This document shows, in pieces, positions 6,468 through 63,194 of a stretch of 64,000 bases of DNA. Source of the DNA: Pseudomonadota bacterium (GTDB lineage: Bacteria > Pseudomonadota > Alphaproteobacteria > UBA8366); the NCBI GenBank assembly GCA_036337155.1, contig JAYZET010000004.1:8352-72351 (forward strand), read 5' to 3'. The notes beneath the pieces were generated by a model, which was given only the letters and a program-made list of their open reading frames with translations, did not search any database and was not told the origin of the DNA. Made by a program: the position numbers and the translations under genes. The stretch's first letter is position 1; each line of letters opens with the position of its first letter.

Positions 6468-7595
6468 CTAAGTGAACAATGCAAGTACGCCGGTATAACC
6501 GTAGAGCCGGTTATTGGAGATTTCACCATTTGCGAAAAAGCCCACTAGCGGAAACTCACCGAGTTCTTTGGAGATCAACTGTAATTCTTCACTATTAGTC
6601 CCAAATTGGTTTGGTCCCCGCGCACAGCACGAAAAATACAGCCCGCCTCGGATCGGTACGTTGCCGGTTCGGTGGCGGAGATCTCTCAGCATGCGCCGCA
6701 TGTCTTCGACCGCACTATTGTGATCGCGGCGACAGAACATGATGGAATCGCCTGCGGTGACGAGTTCACCAATTGCGATGAGATTTTGATTAGGATCAAT
6801 TCCAGTTAAATTGCGGACGAGATAATCTCCTGTATCCGAGCCGCTGACCGGGATTGCAGCGAAGATATAGCCGGCAACCTTACTGAGGTCGCGGGCCAGG
6901 ACTTCTCCAATGTCTTCCTTAAAAACTTCGAGAGCAGGGCGATCGTCGATTTCAATAAGGATGTTTTGTTCGGCGGCAGTGATCCGATGCATTTTGCCGA
7001 TCGGCGAGCAGCCCTGCGTCAGTGCGACGGCAACTGGAACCGCTTCGAGTGATATCATCACGCCTGAAACCTCACCCTCCGCCACGTCCCCGGCGAGTTG
7101 CGGATGGGCACCGTTCGAGGAGGTTAGACCGCCTATTAGAAAGCCGTCGGTTTCGCGTGACAAATCTTCGATAATCCGGGGAACATTCTCATTACGAGGA
7201 TCTGCATGGGTGACAACGAGCGGCGGCGTGTCCGAAAGCCAGTCAGCAATATTGGCAATCGCGGGCGCGATGTCGTCGCTGATACCGCCGAAAACGCGAA
7301 ACGCTTTTTCCGGTATCGGCGCGACCATTGCCGCCATCGCGGCTTCGCCGAAATACTCCTTTCCAGGTGCACAGATGCCGAACCCAACAGTGCCGACCCA
7401 ATTCGGCACCCCGGTCGTCTGACGCAGAAAAGCGGAAATATCCTCCAGGGAAGCCGCGAAAGCATCTGTGACATAGAGGAATCCAAGGCGGTGTTCCTCG
7501 CCAATCGGTTGCAGATTTCGAATCATCTCGTCTGCGGCTTCCTGCCAGCTGGATCCTTTCGCATGCGCTACAAGAAACTTGTCTGGATTACTCAT
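6468..7595 (-). CDS. FIST-domain (FIST_N/FIST_C) sensory protein
   Basis: Its length and sequence pattern (GFLYVTD.., VGTVGFG.., FSCCARG..) match FIST domain proteins. This is assigned by recognition only. Confidence 0.75.
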   Translation of the reverse strand: MSNPDKFLVAHAKGSSWQEAADEMIRNLQPIGEEHRLGFLYVTDAFAASLEDISAFLRQTTGVPNWVGTVGFGICAPGKEYFGEAAMAAMVAPIPEKAFRVFGGISDDIAPAIANIADWLSDTPPLVVTHADPRNENVPRIIEDLSRETDGFLIGGLTSSNGAHPQLAGDVAEGEVSGVMISLEAVPVAVALTQGCSPIGKMHRITAAEQNILIEIDDRPALEVFKEDIGEVLARDLSKVAGYIFAAIPVSGSDTGDYLVRNLTGIDPNQNLIAIGELVTAGDSIMFCRRDHNSAVEDMRRMLRDLRHRTGNVPIRGGLYFSCCARGPNQFGTNSEELQLISKELGEFPLVGFFANGEISNNRLYGYTGVLALFT

Positions 7596-8284
7596 TTAAA
7601 ATCCTTTCCTAGCGCATTTATAACGAAGGGCAATATACGTTCGGCGATAATGGCAACCCCTTTAGCATTCGGATGCAGACCATCCTGCTGGTTTAACTTT
7701 GGGTCGGCGGCAACACCTTCCAGGAAAAATGGATAGAAATCCAACCCCTGATGGTGAGCAATGGCCGGAAAGACATCGTCGAAGCGCTTCGCATAGTCGG
7801 GGCCGAGATTGCGTGGCGCCTTCATACCGGTCAATAAGATTGGCGTACCCGTGGCTTTCAATTTTTGGACGATTTGCTCGAGGTTCTGGCGTGTCAGAGC
7901 CGGGTCTATACCCCGGAGGGCGTCGTTTGCTCCGAGTTCGACGATTGCGAGGTCAAAGCGTCTGTCCATTAACCAATCTATGCGTTGTAGGGCGCCACTT
8001 GTGGTGTCTCCGGAAACGCCAGCGTTAATAATTTCCGACTTGATATCGGCATTCTGAAGTTGCCGGGTGAGCTGTGAGGGAAATGAATCCGGCTGGCGTA
8101 GTCCATAGCCAGCCGTCAAGCTGTCGCCGAGAGCGAGGATACGAATTTGATCCGAAATCGCTGCTGTGGGCGTAATGACCAGGAGGTATGCGAGAAACGG
8201 AAGGGTGATCTTTGCGTTGAAAGGTGGGCGTACCTCGCCATATGGTCGAAGAACTTTCCCGACGATCGGAAACGGTGCAAACAT
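7592..8284 (-). CDS. SGNH/GDSL arylesterase, TesA-like (acyl-CoA thioesterase I/lysophospholipase L1 family)
   Basis: Block I ILALGDSLTAGYG, block III GANDALRG, block V DGLHPN. The ATG at 8284 is the only in-frame canonical start upstream of the hydrophobic signal-like segment. It is divergent from the ybbA-like gene, as in E. coli tesA-ybbA-ybbP. Confidence 0.85.
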   Translation of the reverse strand: MFAPFPIVGKVLRPYGEVRPPFNAKITLPFLAYLLVITPTAAISDQIRILALGDSLTAGYGLRQPDSFPSQLTRQLQNADIKSEIINAGVSGDTTSGALQRIDWLMDRRFDLAIVELGANDALRGIDPALTRQNLEQIVQKLKATGTPILLTGMKAPRNLGPDYAKRFDDVFPAIAHHQGLDFYPFFLEGVAADPKLNQQDGLHPNAKGVAIIAERILPFVINALGKDFK

Positions 8285-9002: not shown

Positions 9003-11530
9003 AGGCATGGTTGGTTCCCATTCGCTTCGCGCTCCGTGAGTTGCGGTCGGGATTGTTTGGGTTTCGCTTATTGATCGCCTGTTTAGCTCTCGGTGTAGCC
9101 GCGGTTGCCGGTGTTGGCTCGCTTGCTGCGGCGTTGACGGCGGGCTTGAAGGCGGAAGGCCGAACCCTGCTTGGTGGCGATGTCGACCTCACATTTACTC
9201 ATCGTCGCGCTTCCCAAGAGCAATTTTCTTGGCTGAAAGCCGGGGGTGCAAAAATTTCATCCGTCATCGAGATGCGCACTATGGTTCGCCCATTGTTAGG
9301 GACGGCTCGACAAAGATTGGTCGAATTGAAGGCTGTTGATGGGAATTACCCTATTTACGGAAGTTTTACGCTAAGGGGCGGCGGTAATCTTGCGATGGCG
9401 CTTCAAAGGAAAGACGATGTTTGGGGTGCCGCTGTTGGGCCGCGGGTGCTCGAGCATCTTGGTATTTCCGTTGGCGATCGGTTTCGCATCGGCGACGCCG
9501 AATTTCGGGCAGCAGCAATTATCCACCGCGAACCAGACCGAGGCACACGAGCGTTTAGGCTTGGCCCGCGGATTATCATTGCAGCGCCGGCCTTGGCGGC
9601 AACGGGCTTAGAACGACCAGGAAGCCTTATCCGATATCATTACCGCCTGGCGCTTCCGCCCGGGACAGACCTTAAGGTATGGCGTGAGACTTTGCAGAAA
9701 CGCTTTCCCGGGGCTGGTTGGCGCATACGGGACGTAGAAAATGCAGCACCTGGTATCCAACGGTTCGTCGACCGCGTGGCGCTGTTCCTTTCGCTGATTG
9801 GGCTGACCGCTTTGCTGGTTGGCGGTGTCGGTGTCGCCAATTCCGTTCGATCTTTCATTGAGTCGCGGATCCGATCTATCGCGACTTTGAAGTGTCTCGG
9901 TGCGAATCGACAAACCATTTTTCGCATTTACCTGCTGCAAGTTTTTGCAATGGCCACAGTTGGCATCTCCGGCGGTCTTGCGATTGGCGCACTGGTGCCG
10001 AAGTTCGTGGCTCCATTGCTCGATGGCCAACTGCCTGTAACGGTGCGCATGGGATTTTATTTGGAACCTATGGCGATCGCCGCCGCATTCGGGTTTCTTG
10101 TCGCCGCGCTCTTTACGTTATGGCCTCTTGGGCTTGCTGGTGAGGTGCGGGCGGCTGCTTTGTTTAGGAACACCGTTGAACGCCTTTGCGGGAAACCGCC
10201 ACGGCGCTTTTACTTTGCAAGTGGAGGGCTTGCGGCGATAATTGCCTTGTTGGTTATTGCAACGGCGTCCCGTCCGGATATGGCTGGTTGGTACATCGCT
10301 GGCGCGGTTTTGGCATTCGCTATTTTCCGAGCGGTAGGAGAAGTGCTCGTTCATATCCTTCGCCGGATACCGCGTCCCCGTCGTCCTATATTGCGACTGG
10401 CACTTGCCAACCTGCACCGGCCTGGTGCGCCGACGACCGGAGCAGTGCTCTCGCTTGGTTTGGGTTTTACGGTACTCGTGGCGGTTGCGTTATTGGAGCA
10501 CAATCTTAAGCGCCAAATCGAAGAAGTCCTGCCTGAGGAAGCGCCGGGATACTACTTCATTGACATCCAGCCGCCACAAGCGGAGGCATTTGACAAACTC
10601 GTGCGGCATCATCCTGGCGTTGCTGATTTGCAACGCGTTCCGATGTTGCGTGGTCGCATTGTAGCGTTGAATAGCACACCGGTAGAAAAGATAGTGCCGC
10701 CGCCCGAATTTGCGTGGATACTGCGCGGTGATAGAGGTCTCACCTGGTCGCGCCGTTTGCCAGATGCAGGCAATCGCATTGTTTCTGGCGATTGGTGGCC
10801 AGCGGACTATGCGGGCGAGCCTTTAGTTTCTTTTGACGCCCGGGCGGCGCGCGCGTTCGGTCTTGACGTTGGTGACAGCTTGACAGTGAACATACTGGGT
10901 AAGCGGGTCACGACCAGGATCGCCAATCTCCGGGTCATCGACTGGACCAGCCTGGGAATTAACTTTGTGATGGTATTTTCGCCTGGGCTCTTAGAAGGTG
11001 CCCCGCAGAGCCAGATCGCGACTGTGCGGATCGATCCGGCGAAGGAATTGGCGCTCGAACGTGCAGTCGCGGACAGTTTCCCAAACGTAACGGCCATCCG
11101 CGTCAAAGAAGTGCTGGAAGACGTAAACAGCGTGCTGGGAAGCCTCGCTATCGCCGTTAAGGGCATCGCGGCAGTGGCAATTTTCGCTGGAATTCTGGTG
11201 CTTGGAGGATCGATTGCGGCGGACCATCGGCGGCGGGTCTATGACGCCGTTGTACTCAAGGTATTGGGTGCGACGAAACTGCGGATCATGAGGACTTTCC
11301 TTGTAGAAATCGGATTAATCGGTCTGTTCACCTCGTTTCTGGCCGCACTACTCGGCACGCTTATCGCTTGGTCTGTCGTTGAGAAGATCATGCGCATGCG
11401 ATGGGACTTCGGAGTGGAACCGCTGGTCTGGACGCTCTTTGCGGCCGTGGTCGTTACGACCGTGTTTGGTTTCGTCGGGACTTGGCGCGCCTTAAGCCTG
11501 AAGGTGGCACCATATTTGCGCAACGATTGA
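8999..11530 (+). CDS. FtsX-family ABC transporter permease (YbbP-like, two FtsX domains)
   Basis: About 843 aa with two clusters of TM helices separated by large loops. ATG at 8999 overlaps the ATPase stop (ATGA). MKAWLVPIRFALRELR is a typical N-terminus. Confidence 0.85.
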   Translation: MKAWLVPIRFALRELRSGLFGFRLLIACLALGVAAVAGVGSLAAALTAGLKAEGRTLLGGDVDLTFTHRRASQEQFSWLKAGGAKISSVIEMRTMVRPLLGTARQRLVELKAVDGNYPIYGSFTLRGGGNLAMALQRKDDVWGAAVGPRVLEHLGISVGDRFRIGDAEFRAAAIIHREPDRGTRAFRLGPRIIIAAPALAATGLERPGSLIRYHYRLALPPGTDLKVWRETLQKRFPGAGWRIRDVENAAPGIQRFVDRVALFLSLIGLTALLVGGVGVANSVRSFIESRIRSIATLKCLGANRQTIFRIYLLQVFAMATVGISGGLAIGALVPKFVAPLLDGQLPVTVRMGFYLEPMAIAAAFGFLVAALFTLWPLGLAGEVRAAALFRNTVERLCGKPPRRFYFASGGLAAIIALLVIATASRPDMAGWYIAGAVLAFAIFRAVGEVLVHILRRIPRPRRPILRLALANLHRPGAPTTGAVLSLGLGFTVLVAVALLEHNLKRQIEEVLPEEAPGYYFIDIQPPQAEAFDKLVRHHPGVADLQRVPMLRGRIVALNSTPVEKIVPPPEFAWILRGDRGLTWSRRLPDAGNRIVSGDWWPADYAGEPLVSFDARAARAFGLDVGDSLTVNILGKRVTTRIANLRVIDWTSLGINFVMVFSPGLLEGAPQSQIATVRIDPAKELALERAVADSFPNVTAIRVKEVLEDVNSVLGSLAIAVKGIAAVAIFAGILVLGGSIAADHRRRVYDAVVLKVLGATKLRIMRTFLVEIGLIGLFTSFLAALLGTLIAWSVVEKIMRMRWDFGVEPLVWTLFAAVVVTTVFGFVGTWRALSLKVAPYLRND

Positions 11531-13145: not shown

Positions 13146-13531
13146 TAGATGGTGAAAATGATCCGGATGCTTGGATGCGATTTGGGGTGCCTGCGCATAA
13201 CAAAATAGAGAAGCGTAAATTTTTACTGGCAATAAAAGGAGGTTTTATAGCGTGGGAATCGTTTTCCCATCCTGGGCTGGTTGTGGCATATTTTACGGCT
13301 CTCGAAGCTTTAATTATTGAATGACGGTTTGATAGGCACAATTGGGATTTAGCAATTCAACTGCTGATCACTCTGCAGTTGACCGTAATGGATTGATCGG
13401 GAACGATGGTGAGTTAGTATAATGCCATCATTACCTTACCCTAGCTTCTTTTTCTGCGCTTTGCTCTGTAAAATAAATTTCAGAAGTATCGCAAAAAATT
13501 TTTGTTAAGGCCGAACTCTTAGGATTGTTTT

Positions 13532-14623
13532 ATGTATGAAAATAAATACCAAGTAGTAAGAAAAGATTTGAGAAAAGCTCATGAACATAATTGGGGCCGG
13601 CTTGGCATAGCGGGGACTTGGTTAGATGCGGAAACTCGAGTTGGTATAATAAAAGAGTTAAGGTATTCAAAGGATTGTAGCTTATGTAAGTTGTCAAAAA
13701 ATTCACTTTCACCTAACCTGGTGGAAGGAAAACATGAGAGTTTAGGAATTCTTTCTGATGGAATGATAGAGATTATTCATCGTCTACGTCACGATGCTGC
13801 TCGGATTACTGAAGATTGGGTGAATAAGATAGCCCTTAAGAGAGTAACAGACGGTGAATATGTTGAAATCATTGCTGTTGTTGCAACTGTTTTAGCCATT
13901 GATGGTTTCAATGATACTCTTGGCTGGCCAAGGCCAAGCTTGCCAAAATTACAAGGCGGTATTCCTAGCAAGAAAAGACCAATAAATGCGAAAAAACAGT
14001 TAGCATGGGTACCTACGTTAAATCCTAGCGATATTGGCGTTGGGGAAATAAATCCTTACGAAGACGTGCGTGGCGTGCATATTCATCAAGCGTTAAGTTT
14101 GGTGCCCGAAGAAGTTATTGCCTTTTTTAAATTAGATGCTGCCCAGTACCTGCACGGCTCAGAGGTAAGGGATTTTAAAAAGGAATATCGTGCCTTAACA
14201 CATCAACAAATTGAATTATTGGCAGGTAGAGTATCTGCTATAAATCAATGCGTCTATTGAACTACCAGTCACGCAGTTCTGCTCCGTGGGAGCAGTGAAT
14301 TTTACGGTAAAGAAATCGACTTGTCCGCTATGGTACGTGAGTCGAATACGCCTACAGGTATAAGGGGTGAAAGTTGTCTTATTTCCTTAGCTGATGGGTT
14401 TTACTCTAATAATCAGGACGATTTAACTGTCGCAAGAGACAAAGTAGAAAAAGAACTAGGAATTTCAGCTCTAGTGGATGCTGCTGGTATTATAGGGATT
14501 TTTGATGGGATTGTTAAAGTAGCGGATGCTACAGGAATACCGCTTGAAAAGGACAAAAGTATTGCATCAAAAGAAATTCGCTTAAGCCTCGGTATAAACA
14601 AATTTCATCCAGATAAAAATTAA
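13532..14623 (+). CDS. AhpD/carboxymuconolactone-decarboxylase (CMD) family protein with in-frame TGA at 14258..14260; candidate CxxU selenoprotein (otherwise a nonsense pseudogene)
   Basis: Conventional ORFs 13532..14260 and 14321..14623 share one frame, with no stop in between. The TGA replaces the second Cys of the CMD motif: SAINQ-C-V-Y-[TGA]-T-T-S-H. A hairpin lies 18 nt downstream. Confidence 0.55.
14279..14295 (+). other. SECIS-like stem-loop downstream of the in-frame TGA
   Basis: CTGCTCC-GTG-GGAGCAG, a 7-bp stem. The apical loop with G/U starts about 25 nt after the UGA, within the range described for bacterial SECIS elements. Confidence 0.4.
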
Positions 14624-15055
14624 ATTGACCCAAATCTAAATTATTAATCTTGAGGTGGTATCCCTTGTACACACTACCCCCTTACGGGGGAAAAGAGCAT
14701 GTCCGTCCTGAGGCCAATGATCCCGAACACATTGCCTCAGAAAAACTTATTGAACCAATAATAATACGTTTGGAATTCAAGAAGTAAGGTGAATGATCTG
14801 ATATCCTCTACGACCCACACCACTCGGGATCCAGTGTTATCCTCAGCGTGATTGATGTATTGAATCAGCCATAAATTTATAACGAGTGATGAGAACGATT
14901 GCGTTGGTCATATAGATAAGAAGATTTTGAAACCACTCACACAAATTATGCTTTCATTATAGTTGGGATGCGTGTCGAGATCAGCTTCGACAGTTGCTAT
15001 TTGGTTACTGCAAAAAAACCTATACCAGAATAATTCTGTCGAATTCTTTAAAATT

Positions 15056-15131
<76 letters not shown>

Positions 15132-15360
15132 ATGCTTGCGACAGTAAAACGCGACCGGTCGCCGATGAGACCATAGGGCTGATGGGGAAAAGACGCAACA
15201 AACAAGCGGACTGATAAGTGCCGAAAAGAACTTCTTTATCTAATCTAAATCACTTTTGATGTGTTAAAATTCCAAAAATTTAACCCAAATGGATGAGACA
15301 TAAAGATAATTATCGTTCTTTTATGTTTTTAGGGTCTGATCTCTCGCAGGGCTGTTTTCT

Positions 15361-17208
15361 TTATATCTTCCGAGGTGTCGCGGTTAGCAGGAACCGCTGC
15401 GCTTCTTCCAGAAAGATGGGATCCTCAAAGATCTTGTCGCAGCCGTTCTGAATTTGTTTCTCGACCTGTGAACAAAATTCTGAGTTGGTGCCAAGGCGTA
15501 AGGCTATATTTGCGAAGTCATCTGCGTCCTTGGCAACGCAATCCATCATGCCCATGTGCTGATATATGGCGAGGCTCAGCCGTCCTCGAAGATAGTCGCC
15601 CGGCAGGGTCACGACTGGGGTTCCCATGGCGAGAGCCTGATAGGTCGTATTGCCGCCGCAGAAGGGGAAACTATCAAGACTAACGTCCGACAATGCGAGA
15701 AGTCGCATGTAATTTTCGTGTGTTTGCCGGGGGAGAAACCGGATACGCGCCGCATCTTTGCCGATGGTGCGCTCGAATCGATCACGCAATTTGGCGCCCC
15801 ATTTGCGGTCTTGTCCCTCGAGGAGGAGGATCAGGCCTTTCGGGTCACGCAGCAGTATGGTCGCTAAGGCGCAGTCCATGTTCGGGTGAATTTTGAACAG
15901 GTTCTGCGCTAAAAAATAGATCGTCGCGTCTTCCGGTAGATTGAAATCGCGGCGCGAGCCGATAGGCTCTGGCCGAGCGGGTCGCCGGTAAGAGAAAGGA
16001 AGGCCGCCCAAACGAACGAGTTGCTCTGTATAATGTTTTTCGGCGTCTTCTGGTTCCGCCGCGTCGCAGGAAAGGTAGTAATCGATGGTAGGCATCCCGG
16101 TGGTGACGGGATGGCCCCATGTAGCTGCCTGAATCGGTGCGAGCTTCGACTGGGCCAAAAAATAGGTCACGGGGTCTATGCCGATATCTGGATAGAACAG
16201 GACATCAAGTTGTGCGATGGAGATCATCTCCCGCGCCGCCTGTAGATCGCTTGGCAGGGTTGCGACCGTATCCGCGAGAGCGTCTATTTCTCGTCTCAAC
16301 TCATCGTTTTTTGGTGTAACAACATGAAACAAGAAAATCTGACAATCGCTGCGCTCGTGTAGACATGCGATTAGTCCGATCATCAGTCGACCAATCGAGT
16401 GGTCATGCAGGAACCGAGAAGCGATGCCGATACGGCGCACCGTCGTAGCAATGCTTTTCTGGGCGCAATGCGGTGCTGTCCAGCAAAGCGAGGGGCAGGC
16501 CGCCCGCATTAGGCGTGCCTGTTTTTCCTGCAATGGGCGATCGTCGAGGCCGTGATATGCGAGAAAAAATCGGTTTCCACCAGCTTCTCGTACGGGGTCA
16601 TTAACCGGTGGCGGGGCCTCAAGGAGAGCTTCCAGGCGGCGTGTATATTCATCGCGGGCATCGGAATATGATTGGGCTGACTCCGGAATAATAGGAACCT
16701 GCAATTGGGCGCGCAGGGTGAACCCGCGAGGTGCGCCGAGGTAGATAGCCCTTTCATAGGCGCGCCGTGCGTCCTTAAATTCACCGCGTGCTTCATGGAC
16801 GGACCCTTTGTAGAGAAGGGGTTCCGGCCAATCCGGTCTATGAAGTGCGGCCGCGCTGAAATGGGCGATAGCGTGGCTCGCAGCTCCTTGTTTTTCCAAT
16901 AGCCGGGCAATCGCAAAATGTGCATTTGCGTTTTTTGGTTCAAGCGCCAGAGCGGTCCGGTACGCGGTAATCGCGGCGTCATTTTGACCGACCCGTGACA
17001 GAGCTTGGGCTAGACCGAAGCATGGTTCTGCCCATTCAGGAGTAATTTCTGCGGCTCGGGCAAATGCGCGTATTGCTTCTTCGGGAAGATCGTTAGCCGT
17101 GACCTGGCCAATGCGGTTCCAAATTTCGGCGTCATCTGGGGTGGCTTCCGCCTGGGCCTTTAGGCGGGCGAAATCGGAATTTCGGTGATTCTCTCCAGAG
17201 AGTATCAT
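15361..17208 (-). CDS. TPR-repeat protein fused to an OGT/SPINDLY-like (GT41-type) glycosyltransferase domain
   Basis: The N-terminal third has TPR units (AITAYRTALALEPKNANAHFAIARLLEKQG...). The C-terminal part has COG3914-like blocks (IYFLAQNLFKIHPNM, FLPRQTHENYMRLLALSDVSLDSFPFCGGNTTYQALAMGTPVVTL). ATG at 17208; a GTG at 17226 is also possible. Confidence 0.8.
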   Translation of the reverse strand: MILSGENHRNSDFARLKAQAEATPDDAEIWNRIGQVTANDLPEEAIRAFARAAEITPEWAEPCFGLAQALSRVGQNDAAITAYRTALALEPKNANAHFAIARLLEKQGAASHAIAHFSAAALHRPDWPEPLLYKGSVHEARGEFKDARRAYERAIYLGAPRGFTLRAQLQVPIIPESAQSYSDARDEYTRRLEALLEAPPPVNDPVREAGGNRFFLAYHGLDDRPLQEKQARLMRAACPSLCWTAPHCAQKSIATTVRRIGIASRFLHDHSIGRLMIGLIACLHERSDCQIFLFHVVTPKNDELRREIDALADTVATLPSDLQAAREMISIAQLDVLFYPDIGIDPVTYFLAQSKLAPIQAATWGHPVTTGMPTIDYYLSCDAAEPEDAEKHYTEQLVRLGGLPFSYRRPARPEPIGSRRDFNLPEDATIYFLAQNLFKIHPNMDCALATILLRDPKGLILLLEGQDRKWGAKLRDRFERTIGKDAARIRFLPRQTHENYMRLLALSDVSLDSFPFCGGNTTYQALAMGTPVVTLPGDYLRGRLSLAIYQHMGMMDCVAKDADDFANIALRLGTNSEFCSQVEKQIQNGCDKIFEDPIFLEEAQRFLLTATPRKI

Positions 17209-52235: not shown

Positions 52236-52245
52236 AATGTTGCGT

Positions 52246-52645
<400 letters not shown>

Positions 52646-52908
52646 GCGCTATTCTTGTTTTCTGTTCGAAATAAAATTGGCGTGCCAAGACGCGCTAAAA
52701 TTGCCCATTACGACGAGAAAGGATTTAAAAACAAAAATAGAACATAAAGAAAACATTAGGGGGTTTTTTATTTTAAGAATTCATTGAAGCACTAAACCTG
52801 GTGTTTCCAAGTGAATACAGCACAATTTTTTGATTACTTGGAGAGAACATGTATTAGTGTAATTTTATCATCTCTATTATTATTTGTTTGTATTGACTTT
52901 CCATTTAA

Positions 52909-53003: not shown

Positions 53004-53459
53004 ATGGCGTTGTTCGCCGGCACATATGAGAACCGGATTGACCGTAAAGGGCGCGTCTCCTTGCCGGCAGATTTTCGTGCCGAGTTACCTACTGAAGGTA
53101 CGCGTGTTGTGTACGTTTATCCTTCTCCCCGCGGAGGCGCGCTCGAGGCGTGCGATCGGCCCTTTATGCAGCGTATGGCCGACAGCTTGGAACAATTTGA
53201 TATGTTCTCCGACGAGGAGGACGAATTGGCTTCGATCATTGTTTCCGAAGCGCGCCGCGTCTCAATCGACGGTGAAGGACGCATCGTGCTGCCACCTGAA
53301 TTGATTGAACTTGCCGGGGTCGATGAGCGAGTAACGTTCGTTGGGCGTGGTGCTCGCTTCCAAATCTGGGATCCTGCCACCTTTGCGGAGAAGGCCGCCG
53401 AGGCGCGCGAGCGTGCAAAGGGTAGGACCATGCGTCTACTCCCGCAGGAGGGGAGTTAA
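53004..53459 (+). CDS. mraZ: transcriptional regulator MraZ
   Basis: Two SpoVT/AbrB-like halves with DRKGRVSLP and DGEGRIVLP motifs. It is the first gene of the dcw cluster. Confidence 0.95.
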   Translation: MALFAGTYENRIDRKGRVSLPADFRAELPTEGTRVVYVYPSPRGGALEACDRPFMQRMADSLEQFDMFSDEEDELASIIVSEARRVSIDGEGRIVLPPELIELAGVDERVTFVGRGARFQIWDPATFAEKAAEARERAKGRTMRLLPQEGS

Positions 53460-54442
53460 TGACCCAGCACACTATCTCGGCTACCGCACATGTACCGGTG
53501 TTGCTCAGTGAGGTATTAATCGCCCTTTCGCCGCACGATGGTGGCGTCTATGTGGACGGTACCTTCGGTGCGGGAGGTTATACTCGTGCCGTATTGGACG
53601 CCGCCGATACTAAAGTCTGGGCAATCGACCGTGATCCAGATGCGATCCGCCGCGGTTATGCACTCCGCATGGAGTGGGGCGATAGATTGACCATGCTGCA
53701 GGGCCGCTTCGGTGAAATGGCTCAGCTGCTGCGGACCGCTGACGTAAATCGTATCGACGGGGTAGTGCTCGATCTCGGCGTCTCCTCCTCGCAGCTAGAC
53801 GATGCGGAGCGCGGCTTCTCGTTCCGTTTGGACGGCCCGCTCGACATGCGCATGGAAAAGGCAGGGCCGAGCGCAGCCGATGTTGTGAATTCGTTAGACG
53901 AGGAGGAACTTGCGCGGCTGCTTCGTGAATTTGGCGAGGAAAAGCGCGCCCGCCAGGTTGCTCGCTCCATTGTCAAAGCGCGCGCCCAACGCCCTATCAC
54001 GCGGACCTCTGAGCTTGCCGAAATTGTTTGCCGAGCGGTTCCGCAAGGCCGCTCGCGGATTAATCCTGCGACCCGCACGTTTATGGCTCTTCGTATTCGA
54101 GTGAACAATGAATTAGGCGAACTCGAATCCTTACTCTGCGCAGCCGAAGAGATGCTCGCGCCCGGCGGTCGGCTCGTCGTCGTCTCATTTCATTCACTGG
54201 AGGATCGCCGAGTTAAAAATTTCATGCAGGAACGGGGTGGCGCGTTACCCGCGGGTTCGCGCCATTTGCCTCCAGTCATAACGCGCCACGCACCAAGTTT
54301 TCGCTTGCTGCGTCGTGGAGCGGTCAAGCCATGCGACGCAGAGGCTAAATTGAATCCACGCGCTCGTTCAGCCCGCCTAAGAGTTGCCGAACGGACAAAA
54401 GCCGCTGCCTGGCCGAAAGACGAGGAGCACGTGGCATTATGA
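53459..54442 (+). CDS. rsmH: 16S rRNA (cytosine1402-N4)-methyltransferase RsmH
   Basis: HVPVLL, DGTFGAGGYT, DLGVSSSQLD and SFHSLEDR motifs. TAATG overlap with mraZ. Confidence 0.95.
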   Translation: MTQHTISATAHVPVLLSEVLIALSPHDGGVYVDGTFGAGGYTRAVLDAADTKVWAIDRDPDAIRRGYALRMEWGDRLTMLQGRFGEMAQLLRTADVNRIDGVVLDLGVSSSQLDDAERGFSFRLDGPLDMRMEKAGPSAADVVNSLDEEELARLLREFGEEKRARQVARSIVKARAQRPITRTSELAEIVCRAVPQGRSRINPATRTFMALRIRVNNELGELESLLCAAEEMLAPGGRLVVVSFHSLEDRRVKNFMQERGGALPAGSRHLPPVITRHAPSFRLLRRGAVKPCDAEAKLNPRARSARLRVAERTKAAAWPKDEEHVAL

Positions 54443-55007
54443 GGATAGTCTTAATCGCGGCGGGGGCTGTGCTCACTGCAGGCTCGCTAGGTGCGATGTT
54501 CTATATCACCTTCGCAGTGGAGCAACTCGAGGCGCGGCCGCACGATCTCAGCCGTGAGATCGCAGGCGAAAAGGAAACAAACCGCGTGTTGAAGCAAGAA
54601 AATGGTTACCTCAACATGCAGGAACGAGGGGGCACGTTACCTGCGGGGTCGCGCTATTTACCGCCGGTCATGACGCTTAATGTGCCGACATTTCGACTGC
54701 TACGCCATAACTTAATTCAGCCGCGTAACGTTGAGGGCGAACTTAATTTAGGCGCATATGTGGTACGACCATTTGCTACGGAACGCCCATTGGCGGTTAC
54801 CTGGCCGGTAGAGAAGGCTCAAGTGACATGATGAGGATCGTCTTCATTGCGGTTTGGGTAACGCTTGCCGCAGGTGCTCTAGGCGCGATGTTTCACATTA
54901 CCTTCGAGGTTGAGCAGCTCGAGGCCCGTCTGCACAAGCTTAATCGCGAGATAGTGCGTGAACAGGAAACGAAACACGTATTGCAGGCGGAATGGAGTTA
55001 TTTCAAC
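54224..55007 (+). repeat. diverged tandem duplication (2 x 392 bp) spanning the rsmH 3' end and the ftsL 5' end
   Basis: Unit A is 54224..54615 and unit B is 54616..55007. Both contain ATGCAGGAACG..., the stop/start ATGA junction and an MRIV... start. My manual alignment gives 23/30 identical residues at the start of the RsmH-like part and 37/59 in the FtsL-like part. Confidence 0.85.
54439..54831 (+). CDS. chimeric ORF: FtsL-like N-terminus (TM + coiled coil) fused in frame to a copy of the RsmH C-terminus
   Basis: aa 1-59 (MRIVLIAAGAVLTAGSLGAMFYITFAVEQLEAR...) parallel FtsL. aa 60-130 (MQERGGTLPAGSRYLPPVMT..FRLLR...) parallel RsmH residues MQERGGALPAGSRHLPPVIT..FRLLR. Intact 130-codon frame with ATGA overlaps at both ends. 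Confidence 0.6.
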   Translation: MRIVLIAAGAVLTAGSLGAMFYITFAVEQLEARPHDLSREIAGEKETNRVLKQENGYLNMQERGGTLPAGSRYLPPVMTLNVPTFRLLRHNLIQPRNVEGELNLGAYVVRPFATERPLAVTWPVEKAQVT

Positions 55008-55202
55008 CGACCGCAGCGCTTGCAGGCGTTGACTCGCGAGTTGTTGCCAAACCTCATACCGATCGAAACTGATCAATTTGTCACTTTCGAGCGGCTCCCG
55101 AAGCGTGGCACGGATCCAATTTCAGCCAAGGACGCGCTATTCGCCTCTCCGGCCTATTATGTTCCTCCTTCAAAGAGCTCAGGAGTAAGGAGGACCCAAT
55201 GA
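54828..55202 (+). CDS. ftsL: cell division protein FtsL (alphaproteobacterial type)
   Basis: Single N-terminal TM, a coiled-coil LEARLHKLNREIVREQETKHVLQAEW, then FNRPQRLQALTRELL typical of alpha FtsL. It sits between rsmH and ftsI. Confidence 0.8.
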   Translation: MMRIVFIAVWVTLAAGALGAMFHITFEVEQLEARLHKLNREIVREQETKHVLQAEWSYFNRPQRLQALTRELLPNLIPIETDQFVTFERLPKRGTDPISAKDALFASPAYYVPPSKSSGVRRTQ

Positions 55203-56959
55203 TTGAACGGATAAAACGCGCGCGCCGCCTTGCTCATCCGATGCCAGTCATACAGCGCGGTGCGCGGCGCCGTGCACCATGCCCGGCCGAAGAAAAAATT
55301 GGACCTGTGAGGGAAGCCATCGAAACGGGCCGCAAGCGTCTTACCATCATGGCGGCGATCTTGTTGCTAGCCTTTTCGGTTGTCGGACTGCGTCTCGTGG
55401 ATATCACTTTGATGCAGGAGGCGATGGAGCCACGGGTCGCGCGTGCGCCCAATACCGAAACACCGCAATTCACACGAGCCAACATTGTCGACCGCAATGG
55501 TGCTCTACTCGCAACAAGTTTACCCACGGCTTCTCTCTATGCAGACCCGCGCCAGGTGATTGACGCTAAGAAAGTGGCTGAGCGCCTCGCAGAAGCGCTG
55601 CCCGGTCTCGATAGCGAGAAACTGGCTGCTAGGTTAGCCTCAAAACGTGGTTTCGTTTGGATTAAGCGTCATCTGACACCGCGTCAGCAAAAGAATGTCA
55701 TTGGTCTCGGTCTACCGGGTGTCGATTTCCGGCGTGAGGAGAGGCGGGTCTATCCCCAGGTCCGGCTATTGTCACATGTTGTCGGGTACGTCGACATAGA
55801 TGAAAAGGGCATCGCTGGAATTGAACGTCATTTCGAGGACGAGCTTCGTCGGCGCACCGAACCGCTAGAGCTGTCAATCGACATGCGAATTCAACACGCA
55901 CTTTGCGGTGAATTGGCAGCGGCTCAGAATGAGTTTGATGCGGTGGGCGCAGCTGGGCTTGTTCTCGACGTACGCACCGCTGAAGTAATGGCGATGTGCT
56001 CGCTGCCGGATTTCGATCCAAACACGCCGATGGCAACTTCGCGCGTTTCACGATTTAACCGTGCCGCGCTAGGGGTTTATGAACTTGGATCCGCCTTCAA
56101 GATCTTCACCACGGCTATGGCACTTGACGGAGGCATAGCGCGCCTCGAGGATCGTTATGACGCGACCAAGCCGCTTAAGATTTCTCGATTTACGATTCGA
56201 GACTATCACGCGAAGAAGCGTTGGCTCTCGGTCGAAGAAATTTTTATGTACTCCTCAAATATTGGCTCCGCGCGGCTGGCTAGCGAGGTTGGAGGTAAGA
56301 CCCAACGTTCCTTCCTTGACAGTATAGGCCTTCTCAAGCCATCCGCGATCGAATTACCCGAAGTAGGCACGCCAATTTTGCCACATGTTTGGCGGCCGAT
56401 TAACACCATGACGATTGGATTTGGTCATGGCATCGCGGTGAGTCCACTGCAGTTGGCAGCGGGCGTTTCTGCAATGGTCAACGGTGGTGTCTATCGACAA
56501 CCTACTATGCTCAAGCGTTACAAGGCAGCACCGGGCCGGCGGGTGATTTCAGAACGAACGTCGAATACGTTGCGCAAGCTTTTGCGCTTAGTAGTCGAAG
56601 AAGGTACGGGTAGTCGAGCGGATACTTCGGGTTACCGAGTTGGCGGGAAAACGGGTACGGCCGAGAAGAGCGGAGCCGAAGGTTATATTAAGCGGGCCTT
56701 ACTCTCATCCTTCATTGGCGTGTTTCCGGTCGATGAACCTCGGTTCGTCATCTTTGCATTGCTCGACGAACCGAAAGGCACCAAGAAGACAAACGGCTAT
56801 GCGACTGGTGGCTGGGTTGCTGCGCCCATCGTCGGACGCGTTGTACGCCGTATTGGTCCCGTCGTCGGTATTCGGCCTTATCCGGAAAAGTTGCCGTCGA
56901 ATCGCCGCAATTTAGTCATGAATCGAGCCCATGGGGCAGCCACACTCGCATCCTATTGA
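55199..56959 (+). CDS. ftsI: peptidoglycan D,D-transpeptidase FtsI (PBP3)
   Basis: N-terminal TM, PBP dimerisation domain, SAFK, SSN and KTGTA motifs. Position in the dcw cluster. Confidence 0.9.
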   Translation: MIERIKRARRLAHPMPVIQRGARRRAPCPAEEKIGPVREAIETGRKRLTIMAAILLLAFSVVGLRLVDITLMQEAMEPRVARAPNTETPQFTRANIVDRNGALLATSLPTASLYADPRQVIDAKKVAERLAEALPGLDSEKLAARLASKRGFVWIKRHLTPRQQKNVIGLGLPGVDFRREERRVYPQVRLLSHVVGYVDIDEKGIAGIERHFEDELRRRTEPLELSIDMRIQHALCGELAAAQNEFDAVGAAGLVLDVRTAEVMAMCSLPDFDPNTPMATSRVSRFNRAALGVYELGSAFKIFTTAMALDGGIARLEDRYDATKPLKISRFTIRDYHAKKRWLSVEEIFMYSSNIGSARLASEVGGKTQRSFLDSIGLLKPSAIELPEVGTPILPHVWRPINTMTIGFGHGIAVSPLQLAAGVSAMVNGGVYRQPTMLKRYKAAPGRRVISERTSNTLRKLLRLVVEEGTGSRADTSGYRVGGKTGTAEKSGAEGYIKRALLSSFIGVFPVDEPRFVIFALLDEPKGTKKTNGYATGGWVAAPIVGRVVRRIGPVVGIRPYPEKLPSNRRNLVMNRAHGAATLASY

Positions 56960-56963
56960 GTAA

Positions 56964-58409
56964 TTGAATGGAGCTAAATTGACCCACGCCACGGTGTTCG
57001 ATGATGTAAAAATAACAGGACTGACTGCGGATAGCCGCAAGGTCAGGCCCGGTTTTCTTTTTGCCGCAATACCGGGGACGAAACTTGATGGACGTGATTA
57101 CATCGATGAGGCAGTTCGTGCCGGAGCGGCCGCTGTTTTGGCTCCGCCTGATGTAACACAAGATCGTGTCACGCCGGGGGTCTCTCTGATCACGGCGGAC
57201 AATCCACGACATAGTCTTGCGCGTATGGCAGCGGCATTTTATGGGAACAAGCCGGAAACGATCGTCGCTGTGACAGGAACAAACGGCAAGACGTCAGTTG
57301 CTAACTTTACACGGCAGATATGGACCGAGACGGGTCGCAAAGCAGCGAGCCTCGGGACACTCGGTCTGATTGGTCCGGGACACGGTGAGGGAAGCAATTT
57401 TACTACGCCGGATGCAGTAGCGCTTAACTGTATCCTCCACAAACTTGCTCAAGAGGGCGTGCAGGATGTGGCGCTGGAAGCTTCGAGCCATGGCCTCTGC
57501 CAGTTCCGCTTAGACGGCGTGCCAATACAGGCTGCCGCTTTCACTAATCTGACTCGGGACCATCTCGACTACCATGGTTCAATGTCAGAATACCGACGTG
57601 CCAAGATGCGCTTGTTTCGCGAACTGCTATTGCCTGGCGGTGCTATCGTGGTCAACGCGGAGACACCCGAATATCCAGCTTTGCTGGAGTTGTCGCGAGA
57701 GCAGGGGCATGAACTTTTTTCATACGGATTCGCAAAGGGTGATATTAAGTGTCGCGCGATGGAGGCGACAGAGGATGGCTGGTCACTCATCTTAAACATT
57801 CTCGGCACTGAACACTCTGTTAAATTTCCGTTGATGGGGTCATTTCAGGTGGCGAACGCTCTCGCAGCCCTTGGACTCGTGATCGCATGTGGAGGTGAAT
57901 ACGCTAAGGTAACCGCGGCTCTGGAAGTATTGAATGGGGTGCCGGGACGTATGGAGACAGCAGCACGACTGCCTTCGGGTGCGCGCATTATAGTTGATTA
58001 TGCGCATACGCCTAATGCGCTTGAAGCCGTGCTGACAGCCGTTCGCCCGCATGTAGCTAATCGGTTGATGTTAGTTTTTGGTTGTGGTGGCGACCGAGAT
58101 CGGGGGAAGAGGCCCGAAATGGGATTGATCGCAGCCCAACTCGCTGATGGTGTCGTTGTGACTGACGACAACCCTCGGCATGAGAATCCGGACGCCATAC
58201 GTAAGGAGATATCCGCCGCCTGTCCCGGTTGCGTCGAAGTCGCTGGACGATACGATGCGATCCGTGTCGCCATGTCGCAGTTGGTGGAGGGCGACATTCT
58301 GGTCGTCGCTGGCAAAGGGCATGAAACTGGCCAGATTTTGGGAAATGAGACTATTCCCTTCTCAGATGTCGAGGTAGTGCGGGACTGCGCGCGGGAAGTT
58401 GCCCGATGA
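56964..58409 (+). CDS. murE: UDP-N-acetylmuramoyl-L-alanyl-D-glutamate--2,6-diaminopimelate ligase MurE
   Basis: VTGTNGKTS P-loop, DYAHTPNALE, and a DNPR motif (VTDDNPRHENP) specifying meso-DAP. TTG start at 56964. Confidence 0.9.
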   Translation: MNGAKLTHATVFDDVKITGLTADSRKVRPGFLFAAIPGTKLDGRDYIDEAVRAGAAAVLAPPDVTQDRVTPGVSLITADNPRHSLARMAAAFYGNKPETIVAVTGTNGKTSVANFTRQIWTETGRKAASLGTLGLIGPGHGEGSNFTTPDAVALNCILHKLAQEGVQDVALEASSHGLCQFRLDGVPIQAAAFTNLTRDHLDYHGSMSEYRRAKMRLFRELLLPGGAIVVNAETPEYPALLELSREQGHELFSYGFAKGDIKCRAMEATEDGWSLILNILGTEHSVKFPLMGSFQVANALAALGLVIACGGEYAKVTAALEVLNGVPGRMETAARLPSGARIIVDYAHTPNALEAVLTAVRPHVANRLMLVFGCGGDRDRGKRPEMGLIAAQLADGVVVTDDNPRHENPDAIRKEISAACPGCVEVAGRYDAIRVAMSQLVEGDILVVAGKGHETGQILGNETIPFSDVEVVRDCAREVAR

Positions 58410-58442
58410 CTGCATCCAAAATATTTGCGGGCGGAGGCGGTC

Positions 58443-59528
58443 GTGCTTTTTAATCTGCTAGTTCCAATGGCGGACGACTACATTGTCTTTAATCTATTTC
58501 GCTATCTTACGTTTCGGACCGGTGGCGCAATCATGACTGCGCTGTTCGTCAGTTTTATTTTTGGGCCGGCAGTAATCAATTGGTTGAAGAATGCGCAAAA
58601 CGGCAATACTCCGGTGCGCGAGGATGTTCCTGAGGGACATCTGAAGAAGATTGGTACGCCGACCATGGGCGGATTCCTTATCTTGATGGCAATTTCCATC
58701 AGCACCTTGCTATGGGCCGATTTACGGAATGGATACGTCTGGATCGTGCTTTTAGTTACGATTGGTTTCGGCGCAGTAGGCTTCGCTGATGATTATCTAA
58801 AGTTGACAGGCCACAAATCGCATGGCCTGCGAGGGCGAATAAAACTGTTCTTCGAAATTCTAATTGCTGCGGTCGCCGTTTGCTGGTTCTTGGTCATCAC
58901 TCCGGATCCTCTCTCCGGTAGTCTCGCAATACCGTTCTTTAAGAATGTCTTGGTCAATCTTGGTTGGTTCTTTGTTCCTTTTGCCGTATTTGTTGTGGTG
59001 GGGGCCTCAAACGCAGTGAACCTCACAGACGGCCTTGATGGTCTTGCCATCGTTCCTGTTATGATTGCCGCCGCCTGTTTTGGTTTCATTGCTTATCTCG
59101 TTGGCAATACAGTTTATTCTGGGTATCTGCAGCTTAACTACGTACAGGGCGTAGGAGAACTCGCGGTTTTCTGCGGTGCGTTAGTGGGGGCAAGCCTAGG
59201 GTTTCTTTGGTATAACGCTCCACCTGCGATGGTCTTCATGGGCGACACTGGCTCGCTATCGGTCGGCGGTGCGCTTGGTTCAATTAGCGTCATTACGAAG
59301 CATGAAGTGGTCCTTGCGATTATCGGCGGTCTTTTCGTTCTGGAGACGGTCTCAGTCATTGTTCAGGTCATCTCGTTCAGGTTGACTGGAAAGCGTGTTT
59401 TCGCGATGGCACCGTTGCATCATCATTTCGAGAAGAAAGGCTGGGCCGAGTCAACCATCGTCATTCGCTTCTGGGTTATAGCGTCGATCCTGGCGCTAGT
59501 CGGTATGTCAACCTTAAAGCTGAGGTGA
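58443..59528 (+). CDS. mraY: phospho-N-acetylmuramoyl-pentapeptide transferase MraY
   Basis: [30 protein letters not shown] and MGDTGSL motifs. GTG at 58443 (MLFNLLVP...) has GGAGG 5 nt upstream. A TTG at 58425 is also open. Confidence 0.9.
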
Positions 59529-59532
59529 TTGG

Positions 59533-60936
59533 ATGATTGATCTCAGCGCCTTCAAAAATAAACGATTCGCGGTTATGGGGTTAGGCATGTCTGGTCTCGT
59601 TGCTGGAGAAGCATTGTGCGCAGGCGGCGCCGAAGTTATCGCTTGGGATGATAGTGAAAGTCGCCGAAGTGATGCGGAAACGCGGGGTGTGCCAATCGTA
59701 CGTTTGGACGACGTTGATTGGATGGGTGTCGAGGCGCTGATTCTGAGCCCCGGTATACCCCACACACACCCCAAACCGAACCCGGTAGCATTGAGTGCCA
59801 AAGAAGCTGGGGTAGCCATCGTCGGCGATGTCGAGTTGCTTTTCCGCACCCAACCGAAAGCGTCCTTCGTCGGTGTCACGGGGACTAACGGTAAGTCCAC
59901 TACAACGGCATTAATTAGCCATATTTTAAACTACGCTGGCCGACGTTGCGCTGCTGGTGGAAACCTTGGTTTACCGGCGTTGTCGCTCGAGCCGCTCGGT
60001 TCCGAGGGCATCTATGTTTTGGAAATGTCATCCTACCAATTGGAGCTAACGCCCTCGGCCCGTTTTGAAGTCGCGATACTACTTAATATCAGCCAGGATC
60101 ACCTTGATCGGCACGGTGGTATGAACGGCTACGTCTCAGCCAAACGCCGAATTTTTGCTCAACAGGAAGTGGGCGATGTGGCTATTGTGGGTGTCGACGA
60201 TCAAGAGGCACTTAGTCTATTACTTTGCTTATCTGCTGAGCGTTCGAGCGGAATTGTGCCAATCTCCACCGAGCGCGAAGTGGGGGGGGGAGTCTACTCC
60301 AAAGGCTCTATGCTTATTGACGCTAGTGGTGCAGTTCCGCGCGAAGTTTGCTCGCTTGCCGATATTGAGGCTTTACCTGGATCCCACAATGCGCAGAATG
60401 CCGCCGCCGCATATGCGGCGGTGCGGGCTGTTGGTGTAACGGCGGAGATTGCGGCCGCTGCGCTTGAAACCTATCCCGGCCTGCCGCATCGCCAGCAACT
60501 AGCGGCAATTATTGACGGTGTACGTTACATTAACGACAGCAAGGCGACGAATCCTGAGGCCGCGGCCAAAGCGCTGTCGAGCTATGAAAAAATTTATTGG
60601 ATCGCTGGCGGTCGCGCTAAAGAGGGCAGCCTAGAAGCGTTGTTTCCTTACATTTCACGTGTCAATCGGGCTTTCCTCATCGGTGAGGCCGCAGAACAAT
60701 TGGCTAACCAACTTTCTGGTCTTACACAGACCGAATTATGTGGTGACCTACAATGCGCAGTGAATGCGGCGGGTCAGGCCGCGGTTGGGGAAAAAGCGGT
60801 TGTTTTGTTGTCACCTGCCTGCGCATCGCACGATCAGTTTGTTAATTTTGAGCAACGGGGCGAGATGTTCTGTCGGCTTGCAGCGCAAAGGCCAGGTATC
60901 GATCGAGATATCCGTTATGGCGGGAAGGCGTCTTGA
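59533..60936 (+). CDS. murD: UDP-N-acetylmuramoylalanine--D-glutamate ligase MurD
   Basis: GLGMSG N-terminal Rossmann-like motif, VTGTNGKSTT P-loop, NDSKATN. Confidence 0.9.
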   Translation: MIDLSAFKNKRFAVMGLGMSGLVAGEALCAGGAEVIAWDDSESRRSDAETRGVPIVRLDDVDWMGVEALILSPGIPHTHPKPNPVALSAKEAGVAIVGDVELLFRTQPKASFVGVTGTNGKSTTTALISHILNYAGRRCAAGGNLGLPALSLEPLGSEGIYVLEMSSYQLELTPSARFEVAILLNISQDHLDRHGGMNGYVSAKRRIFAQQEVGDVAIVGVDDQEALSLLLCLSAERSSGIVPISTEREVGGGVYSKGSMLIDASGAVPREVCSLADIEALPGSHNAQNAAAAYAAVRAVGVTAEIAAAALETYPGLPHRQQLAAIIDGVRYINDSKATNPEAAAKALSSYEKIYWIAGGRAKEGSLEALFPYISRVNRAFLIGEAAEQLANQLSGLTQTELCGDLQCAVNAAGQAAVGEKAVVLLSPACASHDQFVNFEQRGEMFCRLAAQRPGIDRDIRYGGKAS

Positions 60937-60939
60937 GCC

Positions 60940-62055: not shown

Positions 62056-63194
62056 GCGAGGTTCGTCCAATCGTACTAGCGGCCGGCGGAACTGGCGGCC
62101 ATGTTTTTCCCGCACAAACACTGGCGGCCGAGTTGTGCGGGCGGGGTTATCGCCTCGTCCTGTTGGCAGATCGCCGCAGCCAGTCACTTGACGGAGCACT
62201 TGGTGAACTTGAGGTCCATCGTATCGATGGCGCGGGCGTTAGCGGTAAAGGATATCTTGCAAAGGCAGCGGCAATGCTGCGGCTGGCCCGGGGTTACTTA
62301 CAGGCGCGACGGTGCCTTCGTCGGTTAGATCCGATAATGGTCGTTGGTTTCGGCAGTTACCCTTCGGTTCCCACCGTGCTTGCTGCGCAGCATCTTGGTT
62401 TGAAGACACTGATCCACGAACAAAATGCAGTGCTTGGACGTGCCAATCGGCTGTTGGCTACAAGAGCCACACGAGTAGCTACCGCATTTGAGTCCGTGCG
62501 TGAGTTGCGCGCTGTCGACTGTGAAAAAACTGTTTGGACAGGCAACCCTGTGCGACCCGAAGTGATTGCAGCGCGTGACCAGGTTTATGCTCCTCCTCGT
62601 AATGACAGAGATGTCAATCTTCTCGTCGTGGGAGGCAGTCAAGGCGCCAAGTATTTTGGCGAAATCGTGCCGCGTGCACTTATCTTACTTGAAGAGGGGT
62701 TGCGTTCCCGGTTACGGGTCGCCTTGCAATGTCGTGTCGAGGAGATCAACACCGCAAAAATCAAACTTCATCGCGCCAAAGTTCGCGCAGAGGTTTCGTC
62801 ATTTTTCGATAATATTCCAGAGAGACTTGGGTCTGCGACTCTTGTCATTTGTCGCGGTGGCGCGTCTACGGTAGCGGAACTGATGGCTGTTGGCCGTCCG
62901 TCGCTTTTAGTACCATTTCCCCATGCGACAGATGATCATCAAACGGCGAATGCGGAGGGGCTTTGCGACGCAGGCGGCGGTTGGATAGTTCAGCAGAATG
63001 TGTTGAGTCCGGAGATATTAGCTGAGCGGATTGAATCACTTTTGCGGCCAGGTCCAACCTTAACGGTTGCGGCTAATTGTGCCCGACAGATGGGTAAGCC
63101 CGAGGCTACTGCGCGGCTTGCCGATCTCGTAGTCGAAGAACTTAAGGGTAATGGCAGAAACCTAATTGCTGATCGGCAGGAGGCCGTCGCATGA
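62052..63194 (+). CDS. murG: undecaprenyldiphospho-muramoylpentapeptide beta-N-acetylglucosaminyltransferase MurG
   Basis: [13 protein letters not shown]-terminal motif, GGSQGA, and [11 protein letters not shown]...H.TDDHQT.NA. Confidence 0.9.

Follow-up and report, generated by a model that had tools for sequence, protein, structure and literature searches.

The segment at 13532..14623 on the forward strand is, with high probability, a single gene that would encode a 363-residue selenoprotein of the NF041238 family, its in-frame UGA being decoded by means of a SECIS hairpin. This reading rests on membership in the family, a conserved UGA, constraint on the hairpin at the nucleotide level, purifying selection after the UGA, and colinearity with both Cys-containing homologues and AhpD-like structures, all of them results of sequence comparison. 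Following the standard bacterial mechanism, the UGA at 14258-14260 would be decoded as selenocysteine (Sec), and the mRNA hairpin at 14279-14295 would serve as the bacterial SECIS, which would bring SelB with Sec-tRNA(Sec) to a ribosome stalled at the UGA. All positions are those of the window, that is, the whole 64-kb stretch of DNA that was analysed.

Gene Structure and Family Membership

The first open reading frame (13532..14260, forward strand) opens with an ATG at 13532, and an AGGA at 13521..13524, 7 nt before the ATG on the same strand, is likely its ribosome-binding site, judging from the sequence context. It ends with ...AINQCVY, followed by the TGA at 14258-14260. No stop occurs in the 60 nt that follow (14261-14320), which encode 20 residues, TTSHAVLLRGSSEFYGKEID, and the frame is closed by a TAA at 14621-14623, 120 codons beyond the TGA, which gives a total of 363 codons including the TGA. 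By our own arithmetic, the chance of 120 stop-free codons at ~40% GC is about 4e-4. The start of the second open reading frame at 14321, which shares the frame of 13532 (each is 2 mod 3), is merely the first TTG within the continuation after the TGA. The original prediction had described a TGA-ended frame with a same-frame continuation, and every coordinate matched on re-reading. Its stop-free 60-nt interval also stood, and the 23-residue peptide that it assigned to this interval did not, as that string consists of the 20 residues plus three codons of the second frame. It had further expected gene callers to split the gene, and the public calls are indeed a 242-aa and a 97-aa open reading frame.

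In the NCBIfam profile search, the 363-residue read-through product matched NF041238 with 399.1 bits (cut-off, 175; E = 1.9e-119), and the alignment placed residues 9-359 of the protein on positions 1-356 of the 357-position profile, i.e., over its full length. This match, the translation itself and tblastn matches in 80 genomes support the complete selenoprotein coding sequence at 13532..14623 on the forward strand. NF041238 is AhpD_rel_CFYUT, “alkylhydroperoxidase-related (seleno)protein,” and its C-x-Y-U-T motif is present here as C240-V-Y-TGA-T244. The motif thus reads CVYUT here and not CFYUT; among 60 close homologues CTY occurred 22 times, CVY 20 times and CFY nine times, so that V is the second commonest variant. 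Besides the motif and the full-length match, the gene shares with the family the CxxU signature, a SECIS hairpin just 3′ of it and a marine metagenomic origin. Within NF041238, the window copy belongs to a low-GC subclade with P0001-P0003 (87-91% identical) and is foreign DNA to a genome whose GC content is 53%.

The family has been catalogued since 2005. Zhang, Fomenko and Gladyshev (2005) described a Sargasso Sea family of four sequences with a conserved CXXU and a predicted SECIS (PMC1088965), and a 2026 review equates NF041238 with “hypothetical protein 1” of the Sargasso Sea selenoproteome (table, PMC13188914). The Pfam CMD domain (PF02627) was marginal around the motif (23.7 bits, against a gathering score of 23), and the scores for AhpD proper (TIGR00777; 13 bits, cut-off 191.95) and for the COG2128-type proteins (TIGR01926; 27.6 bits, cut-off 81.8) were far below their cut-offs. 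Judged by these scores, the read-through protein is kin to both of the latter subfamilies and a member of neither. The “AhpD-like 1” selenoproteins (COG2128/TIGR01926, CxxU), of which 299 sequences were found in GOS (PMC2398784), have the superfamily, the CxxU motif and the habitat in common with it, and both families sometimes adjoin Prx-like selenoprotein genes; however, the two are separate families in the review (PMC13188914), and the TIGR01926 score found here is under its cut-off. The assignment to an AhpD/CMD-family CxxU selenoprotein made in the original prediction was supported by the NF041238 score, as well as by the conservation of the TGA among homologues.

The UGA as a Probable Selenocysteine Codon

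Four independent comparative lines, namely gene calls, genomic DNA, representative proteins and selection, identify this UGA (14258..14260, forward strand; codon 243, hence U243) as a selenocysteine codon, as far as sequence comparison can do so. In a collection of 5.8 billion proteins, all 60 close homologues (33-91% identity) had been annotated at 217-269 aa, each ending precisely at C-x-Y. At the DNA level, TGA occupied this codon in 81 of 81 gene copies from 80 other species-representative genomes, and TGC, TGT, TAA or TAG in none. Most of these genomes are from Alphaproteobacteria and Rhodospirillaceae, and some from Burkholderiales, Gammaproteobacteria and Myxococcota; their tblastn matches cover most of query residues 1-363. 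In all 81 copies the frame continues for 114-156 codons after the TGA, and in 80 of them the continuation opens with T-x-x-H, the fuller pattern being T-(T/V/S/A)-x-H-x-x-(L/M/V)-L-R.

When the N-terminal 242 residues were run exhaustively with HMMER against 1.84 billion representatives, 447 matches reached E <= 1e-10. Among the best 150 of these, 111 end at C-x-Y, 17 are full-length proteins with Cys at the codon 243 position, and the remaining 22 are incomplete or have no such motif (P0214 was assigned by visual inspection). The 17 Cys homologues are 339-418 aa long, and 16 of them carry C-x-Y-C-x-x-x-H. The Sec form thus dominates, with colinear Cys homologues existing beside it. These 17 proteins, like the solved Cys-containing AhpD-like proteins, align straight over the TGA, which was the outcome that the proposed colinearity check had looked for.

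The C-terminal 120 residues (14261..14620, forward strand) would complete the AhpD-like domain, as indicated by dN/dS, by an alignment with the AhpD-like structure 6k40 and by conserved residues. Between the window gene and an 86%-identical relative, L081, dN/dS was 0.14 before the TGA and 0.154 after it, and ~2 in the two wrong frames; the purifying selection measured in this way may largely predate the arrival of the gene in its host. R302, G310, A331, G335 and R350 in this part are conserved in 81-82 of 82 sequences. The segment after the TGA aligns with residues ~95-186 of 6k40, so that the downstream homology on which the original prediction depended was found.

Two other explanations of the TGA were considered. 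A reassigned genetic code was rejected, as TGA is an ordinary stop here and ends 21 of 47 large open reading frames. If the gene were a nonsense pseudogene, TGC or TGT for Cys in an ordinary CxxC AhpD-like gene would have turned into TGA, a single mutational step given that full-length Cys homologues exist. This explanation is nevertheless extremely improbable and is excluded at the family level: TGA is found in all 81 genes (80 species) and a stop at this point in 111 of the best 150 representatives, purifying selection after the TGA is the same as before it, and the hairpin 3′ of the TGA is invariant at the nucleotide level.

The Probable SECIS Hairpin

The candidate SECIS, CUGCUCC-GUG-GGAGCAG (14279..14295, forward strand), consists of a 7-bp stem and a 3-nt GUG loop, with the hairpin starting 18 nt and its loop starting 25 nt past the TGA. 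Folded in isolation, the 17-nt hairpin has an energy of -10.0 kcal/mol, and none of 200 shuffles was as good. As the energy of the 76-nt context is unexceptional (z = -0.77), the decisive evidence is comparative and not thermodynamic. The published bacterial SECIS model calls for a loop of 3-9 nt, a stem of 4-16 bp, a G within the first two loop positions, a spacing of 16-37 nt and an MFE <= -7.5 kcal/mol (PMC13188914). The window hairpin lies within all of these limits (loop 3 nt, stem 7 bp, spacing 25 nt, -10.0 kcal/mol), with a loop that begins with G followed by U, and the bacterial SECIS geometry claimed for it originally is thereby upheld. Rfam scans of the whole window and of 14200-14400 matched no SECIS family and returned only tRNA-Thr and RNase P RNA; this negative result is uninformative, because no Rfam model matches the hairpin.

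A gap-free alignment of 82 sequences over the 55 nt from the TGA onward revealed that columns 24-29, 31, 33 and 35 are invariant and that columns 23, 30, 34 and 36 are at least 90% conserved. The consensus of the hairpin core is CUGCUCCGUG(C/G)GAGC, with the 15-nt core reading CUGCUCCGUGSGAGC. The hairpin codes for L-L-R-A-S, residues that all have four- or six-fold degenerate codons. Codon entropy was 0-0.54 bits at codons 246 and 250-254, versus 1.07-2.23 bits elsewhere, the comparison set being 52 other positions of the gene at which such a degenerate residue is conserved. CTC, for example, encodes Leu251 in each of the 82 sequences, and GCG encodes Ala253 in 72 of 72. As the drop in codon entropy is limited to codons 246 and 250-254, selection acts on the RNA and is confined to the hairpin. 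The window gene is AT-rich, and of its 34 Leu codons outside the hairpin only 3 are CTG or CTC, the two that the hairpin uses.

The six core pairs are 96-100% paired across the alignment. The outer pair, 22-38, occurs as CG (62), UG (6), AU (3) and GC (3), and the next pair as UG (55), UA (21) and CG (1). The examination of homologous loci that had been suggested for the hairpin therefore found it near-frozen at the nucleotide level, with modest covariation, because the stem hardly varies. In the window copy GGG stands in place of the GCG of most copies; this adds the seventh pair and reduces the loop from CGUGC to GUG, and L001, L005, L047, L059, L077 and L081 share the variant.

In bacterial SECIS elements it is usually the shape that is said to be conserved, not the sequence. 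The present hairpin resembles the bSECISearch model in its 6-7 bp stem, its 3-nt loop (5 nt in most relatives) and the G at loop position 1 or 2 followed by U, but differs from it in that the 15-nt core is near-invariant over Alpha-, Beta- and Gammaproteobacteria and Myxococcota.

The window hairpin is also flagged by a simple terminator scan, because TGAATTTTAC comes directly 3′ of it in this AT-rich copy. Together with the two open reading frames given by gene callers, this hit is what favours a reading as two genes, in which a 242-residue protein ends naturally at the TGA, the hairpin acts as a terminator (intrinsic) or attenuator, and 14321 is the start of a small, independent open reading frame. 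The T-run, however, is absent after the hairpin in most homologues, in which the consensus tail is GGCnAACAT, and the 20 codons from the TGA to 14321 show protein-level conservation (T-T-S-H-x-x-L-L-R-A-S). The site is crossed without a break in AhpD-like structures and in Cys homologues, and the catalytic His lies 3′ of the TGA. With conserved codons between the two frames, no general T-run, and continuous structures and homologues, the two-gene reading is refuted, and we give it next to no probability.

Active Site and Proposed Function

Read as a selenoprotein, the C-terminal half (residues ~165-350) would be, by homology, an AhpD/CMD-type helical domain in which all residues of the catalytic relay are present. 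The active-site segment E228...C240-V-Y242-U243-T-T-S-H247 (14213..14272, forward strand) is marked out by the family alignment A3, in which E228, C240, Y242, U243 and H247 are all invariant, and by alignments with 6k40 and 1gu9. A profile search of the PDB with 16 full-length family members matched 6k40 (E = 5.9e-13), 2oyo (E = 5.2e-9), 3c1l (E = 5.6e-9), 2pfx (E = 7.1e-9), 2o4d (PA0269; E = 4.3e-4) and 1gu9 (AhpD of M. tuberculosis; E = 0.038), and the alignments run across the TGA, with the family's 'alnqCvYCttsH' against 'GLNRCVYCAVSH'. A five-residue proton relay has been described for AhpD and PA0269 (PMC3141380). Its spacing, Glu-x12-Cys-x-(His/Tyr)-Cys-x3-His, is found in the read-through protein; the equivalent residues are Glu118, Cys130, His132, Cys133 and His137 in M. 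tuberculosis AhpD, in the coordinates of the 1gu9 match, and Glu36, Cys48, Tyr50, Cys51 and His55 in PA0269.

The attacking position is the usual place for Sec. The original prediction had superimposed C-V-Y-[TGA]-T-T-S-H on the CxxC-x-x-x-H signature, which fits, and had put the TGA at the resolving Cys, which does not: in M. tuberculosis AhpD, Cys133 makes the disulfide with AhpC, and Cys130 is partly buried (PMC6626918). Because the equivalent Cys133 forms this disulfide, U243 is at the attacking position.

The similarities to M. tuberculosis AhpD (1knc, 1gu9), PA0269 (2o4d) and 6k40 include the Pfam CMD domain and an identical spacing of the relay, and PA0269 has a Tyr at the position of AhpD His132, as does the present protein with Y242. 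The differences from AhpD are also considerable. Sec takes the place of the attacking Cys, sequence similarity is weak (23.7 bits for Pfam; 13 bits against 192 for TIGR00777), and the protein has roughly double the length, including an additional N-terminal stretch of ~165 residues that is specific to the family and contains an invariant CxxC of its own as well as two His. This conserved motif, C49-S-L-C52 (13676..13687, forward strand), occupies invariant columns in alignments A1 and A3; C49 and C52 are invariant in the family, and so are H68 and H83. Comparison of the N-terminal half with the C-terminal half by hhalign gave E = 0.0016 and a probability of just 16%. A weaker possibility is a degenerate AhpD-like repeat in the N-terminal half, the second in the protein and with a CxxC of its own; if real, such a repeat would give a two-site redox relay.

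By homology, the protein is most likely a selenol/thiol oxidoreductase, in which U243 would attack either a peroxide or an oxidised partner, for instance a peroxiredoxin, and C240 would then resolve the selenenylsulfide. At some carrier loci (L054 was the one examined closely), a Prx-like selenoprotein gene (G-H-W-TGA-P-F-C, UxxC) lies directly downstream; the neighbour cluster of this gene is present at 11 of the 80 loci, downstream and on the same strand in seven. The pairing of Prx-like and AhpD-like genes has already been noted in ocean metagenomes (PMC2398784; PMC13188914), and it fits the paradigm in which AhpD reduces a peroxiredoxin. Given this pairing and the intact proton relay, we propose an oxidoreductase that would recycle a peroxiredoxin-type partner. 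A search for a conserved neighbourhood over the 80 loci found no neighbour common to more than 11 of them, so that gene context yields no general functional clue.

Genomic Setting and Decoding in the Host

The gene is compositionally foreign to its surroundings, with a GC content of 39.6% and a GC3 of 29%, against 50-58% and 47-65%, respectively, for twenty neighbouring genes. It is surrounded by a low-GC stretch of ~2.2 kb (~13150-15400) that ends near a tRNA-Thr(CGU) annotated in the window on the opposite strand (15056-15131). In this stretch neither direct repeats nor copies of the tRNA-Thr 3′ end were found, and near the gene there is no integrase and there are no flanking repeats. The window otherwise contains ordinary chromosomal genes, including those for aconitase, PBP1A and RNase P RNA and the mraZ-murG cell-division cluster. 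Judged by its MurE, the host belongs to the uncultured marine Alphaproteobacteria. A blastn comparison with L081, the closest other lineage, found homology (83.6%) over 13385..14639 on the forward strand, i.e., the gene and ~147 bp upstream; L081 and L082 come from Tara Oceans, and their flanking genes differ from those of the window. The locus recurs at 99.5-99.7% identity on at least nine contigs from separate marine samples, and its recurrence at this identity in several marine metagenomes indicates that it is fixed in an abundant marine population. The SECIS core is unusually invariant in a gene that appears mobile between genomes.

The only rival explanation still standing concerns this host. 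The gene may be a genuine member of the family, acquired horizontally by a bacterium whose Sec machinery is lacking or incompatible, so that the UGA stops translation and the product is a 242-residue fragment without the active-site Sec and His. Such an explanation would be consistent with the foreign composition, little adjusted to the host (GC3 of 29%, versus 47-65%), with the limitation of homology with the nearest other lineage to the gene and ~150 bp, and with the search of the 64-kb window, in which selA, selB, selD and tRNA-Sec were sought and none was found. In the same 64 kb, no credible further TGA-split (selenoprotein) gene was found. Look-ups by identical protein for two genes at the edges of the window and for one neighbour gave no match, probably owing to differently called start codons. 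On the other side, the TGA, the hairpin and the downstream frame are intact on the at least nine contigs, and four of the five sites that vary within this population are synonymous. Most carriers of the family are, like the host, Alphaproteobacteria, and in at least one carrier another selenoprotein gene is adjacent. We consider loss of decoding in this host improbable, and prefer the reading in which the UGA is decoded as Sec.

Implications for Annotation and for the Family

The present case is a correct rediscovery of a selenoprotein family that is real but already known, and it adds little new biology, as a curated NCBIfam model exists and the protein is already named in GenBank: MEE2687911.1 is the exact 242-residue product, [quoted passage not shown] encoded on a contig of 92,288 bp. 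The case does confirm that a sequence-only reader can spot a Sec codon through motif, frame and hairpin alone. The residual value lies in correcting the annotation, since the public record and all metagenomic gene calls examined end at residue 242. Such records lack the catalytic Sec, the His and the last 120 residues, and searches and structure predictions that start from them therefore use a shortened protein.

A further idea, which we put forward tentatively and regard as rather unlikely, is that a self-contained cassette of ~1.25 kb, made up of promoter region, coding sequence and SECIS, moves between marine bacteria, and that its near-invariant SECIS can be decoded by the SelB of many recipients. 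If this were true, a “universal” bacterial SECIS would make this selenoprotein gene unusually transferable.

Annotation and copy number of the AhpD-related selenoprotein gene

Public annotation has recognized the family of the selenoprotein encoded at 13532-14623, as GenBank entry MEE2687911.1 carries the family name, yet its protein model ends at residue 242. The C-terminal part appears in metagenome gene calls as a separate ORF of 97 aa (or 115 aa), and in the metagenome locus L084 the gene is split into calls at 10001-10729 and 10799-11092. Two copies per genome are frequent in the family. A single tandem pair was seen, in the homologous locus L032, with a TGA in both copies (at 6724 and 7836), and copies on two contigs were found in six MAGs (L012/L024, L029/L045, L058/L072, L026/L064, L006/L075, and L030/L053).

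In the AT-rich copy of the window, TGAATTTTAC lies directly 3' of the SECIS hairpin (14279-14304 together), and because of this the hairpin also fits a simple intrinsic-terminator pattern; the T-run is missing after the hairpin in most relatives.

The N-terminal half of the protein (residues 1-165; 13532-14030) is family-specific and without a Pfam match. It contains an invariant C-x-x-C, C49/C52 (13676-13687), as well as H68 and H83. When the two halves were compared by hhalign, C49xxC52 fell opposite C240xxU243 (E = 0.0016, with a probability of just 16%). The N-terminal half could represent either a second AhpD-like repeat that has degenerated or a metal site.

Genomic context and the Prx-like neighbor

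The selenoprotein gene is foreign by composition, with a GC content of 39.6% and a GC3 of 29%, against a GC3 of 47-65% in its neighbors in the window. It is held in a low-GC stretch (13150-15400) whose end is close to a tRNA-Thr(CGU) gene (15056-15131, minus strand), and the nearest other lineage matches the window at 13385-14639 only. No integrase or flanking repeats were found around this stretch. The wider setting is ordinarily chromosomal, comprising a class A RNase P RNA (52245-52650, plus strand; 308 bits) and, 3' of it on the same strand, an apparent mraZ-rsmH-ftsI-murE-...-murG cell-division cluster (53004-63194), in which all five genes scanned were matched.

A Prx-like selenoprotein neighbor is absent from the window. 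In the homologous locus L054, a second selenoprotein gene of this kind (~7250-7720) lies directly 3' of the AhpD-related gene; its product reads ...FYRGHW-TGA-PFCRRQ..., a UxxC motif, and ORF calling also breaks this gene in two. The Prx-like neighbor cluster occurs at 11 of the 80 loci, on the same strand and downstream in seven of them. Such a pairing has an earlier record in GOS data, and the arrangement suggests that the Prx-like and AhpD-related selenoproteins form a functional pair.
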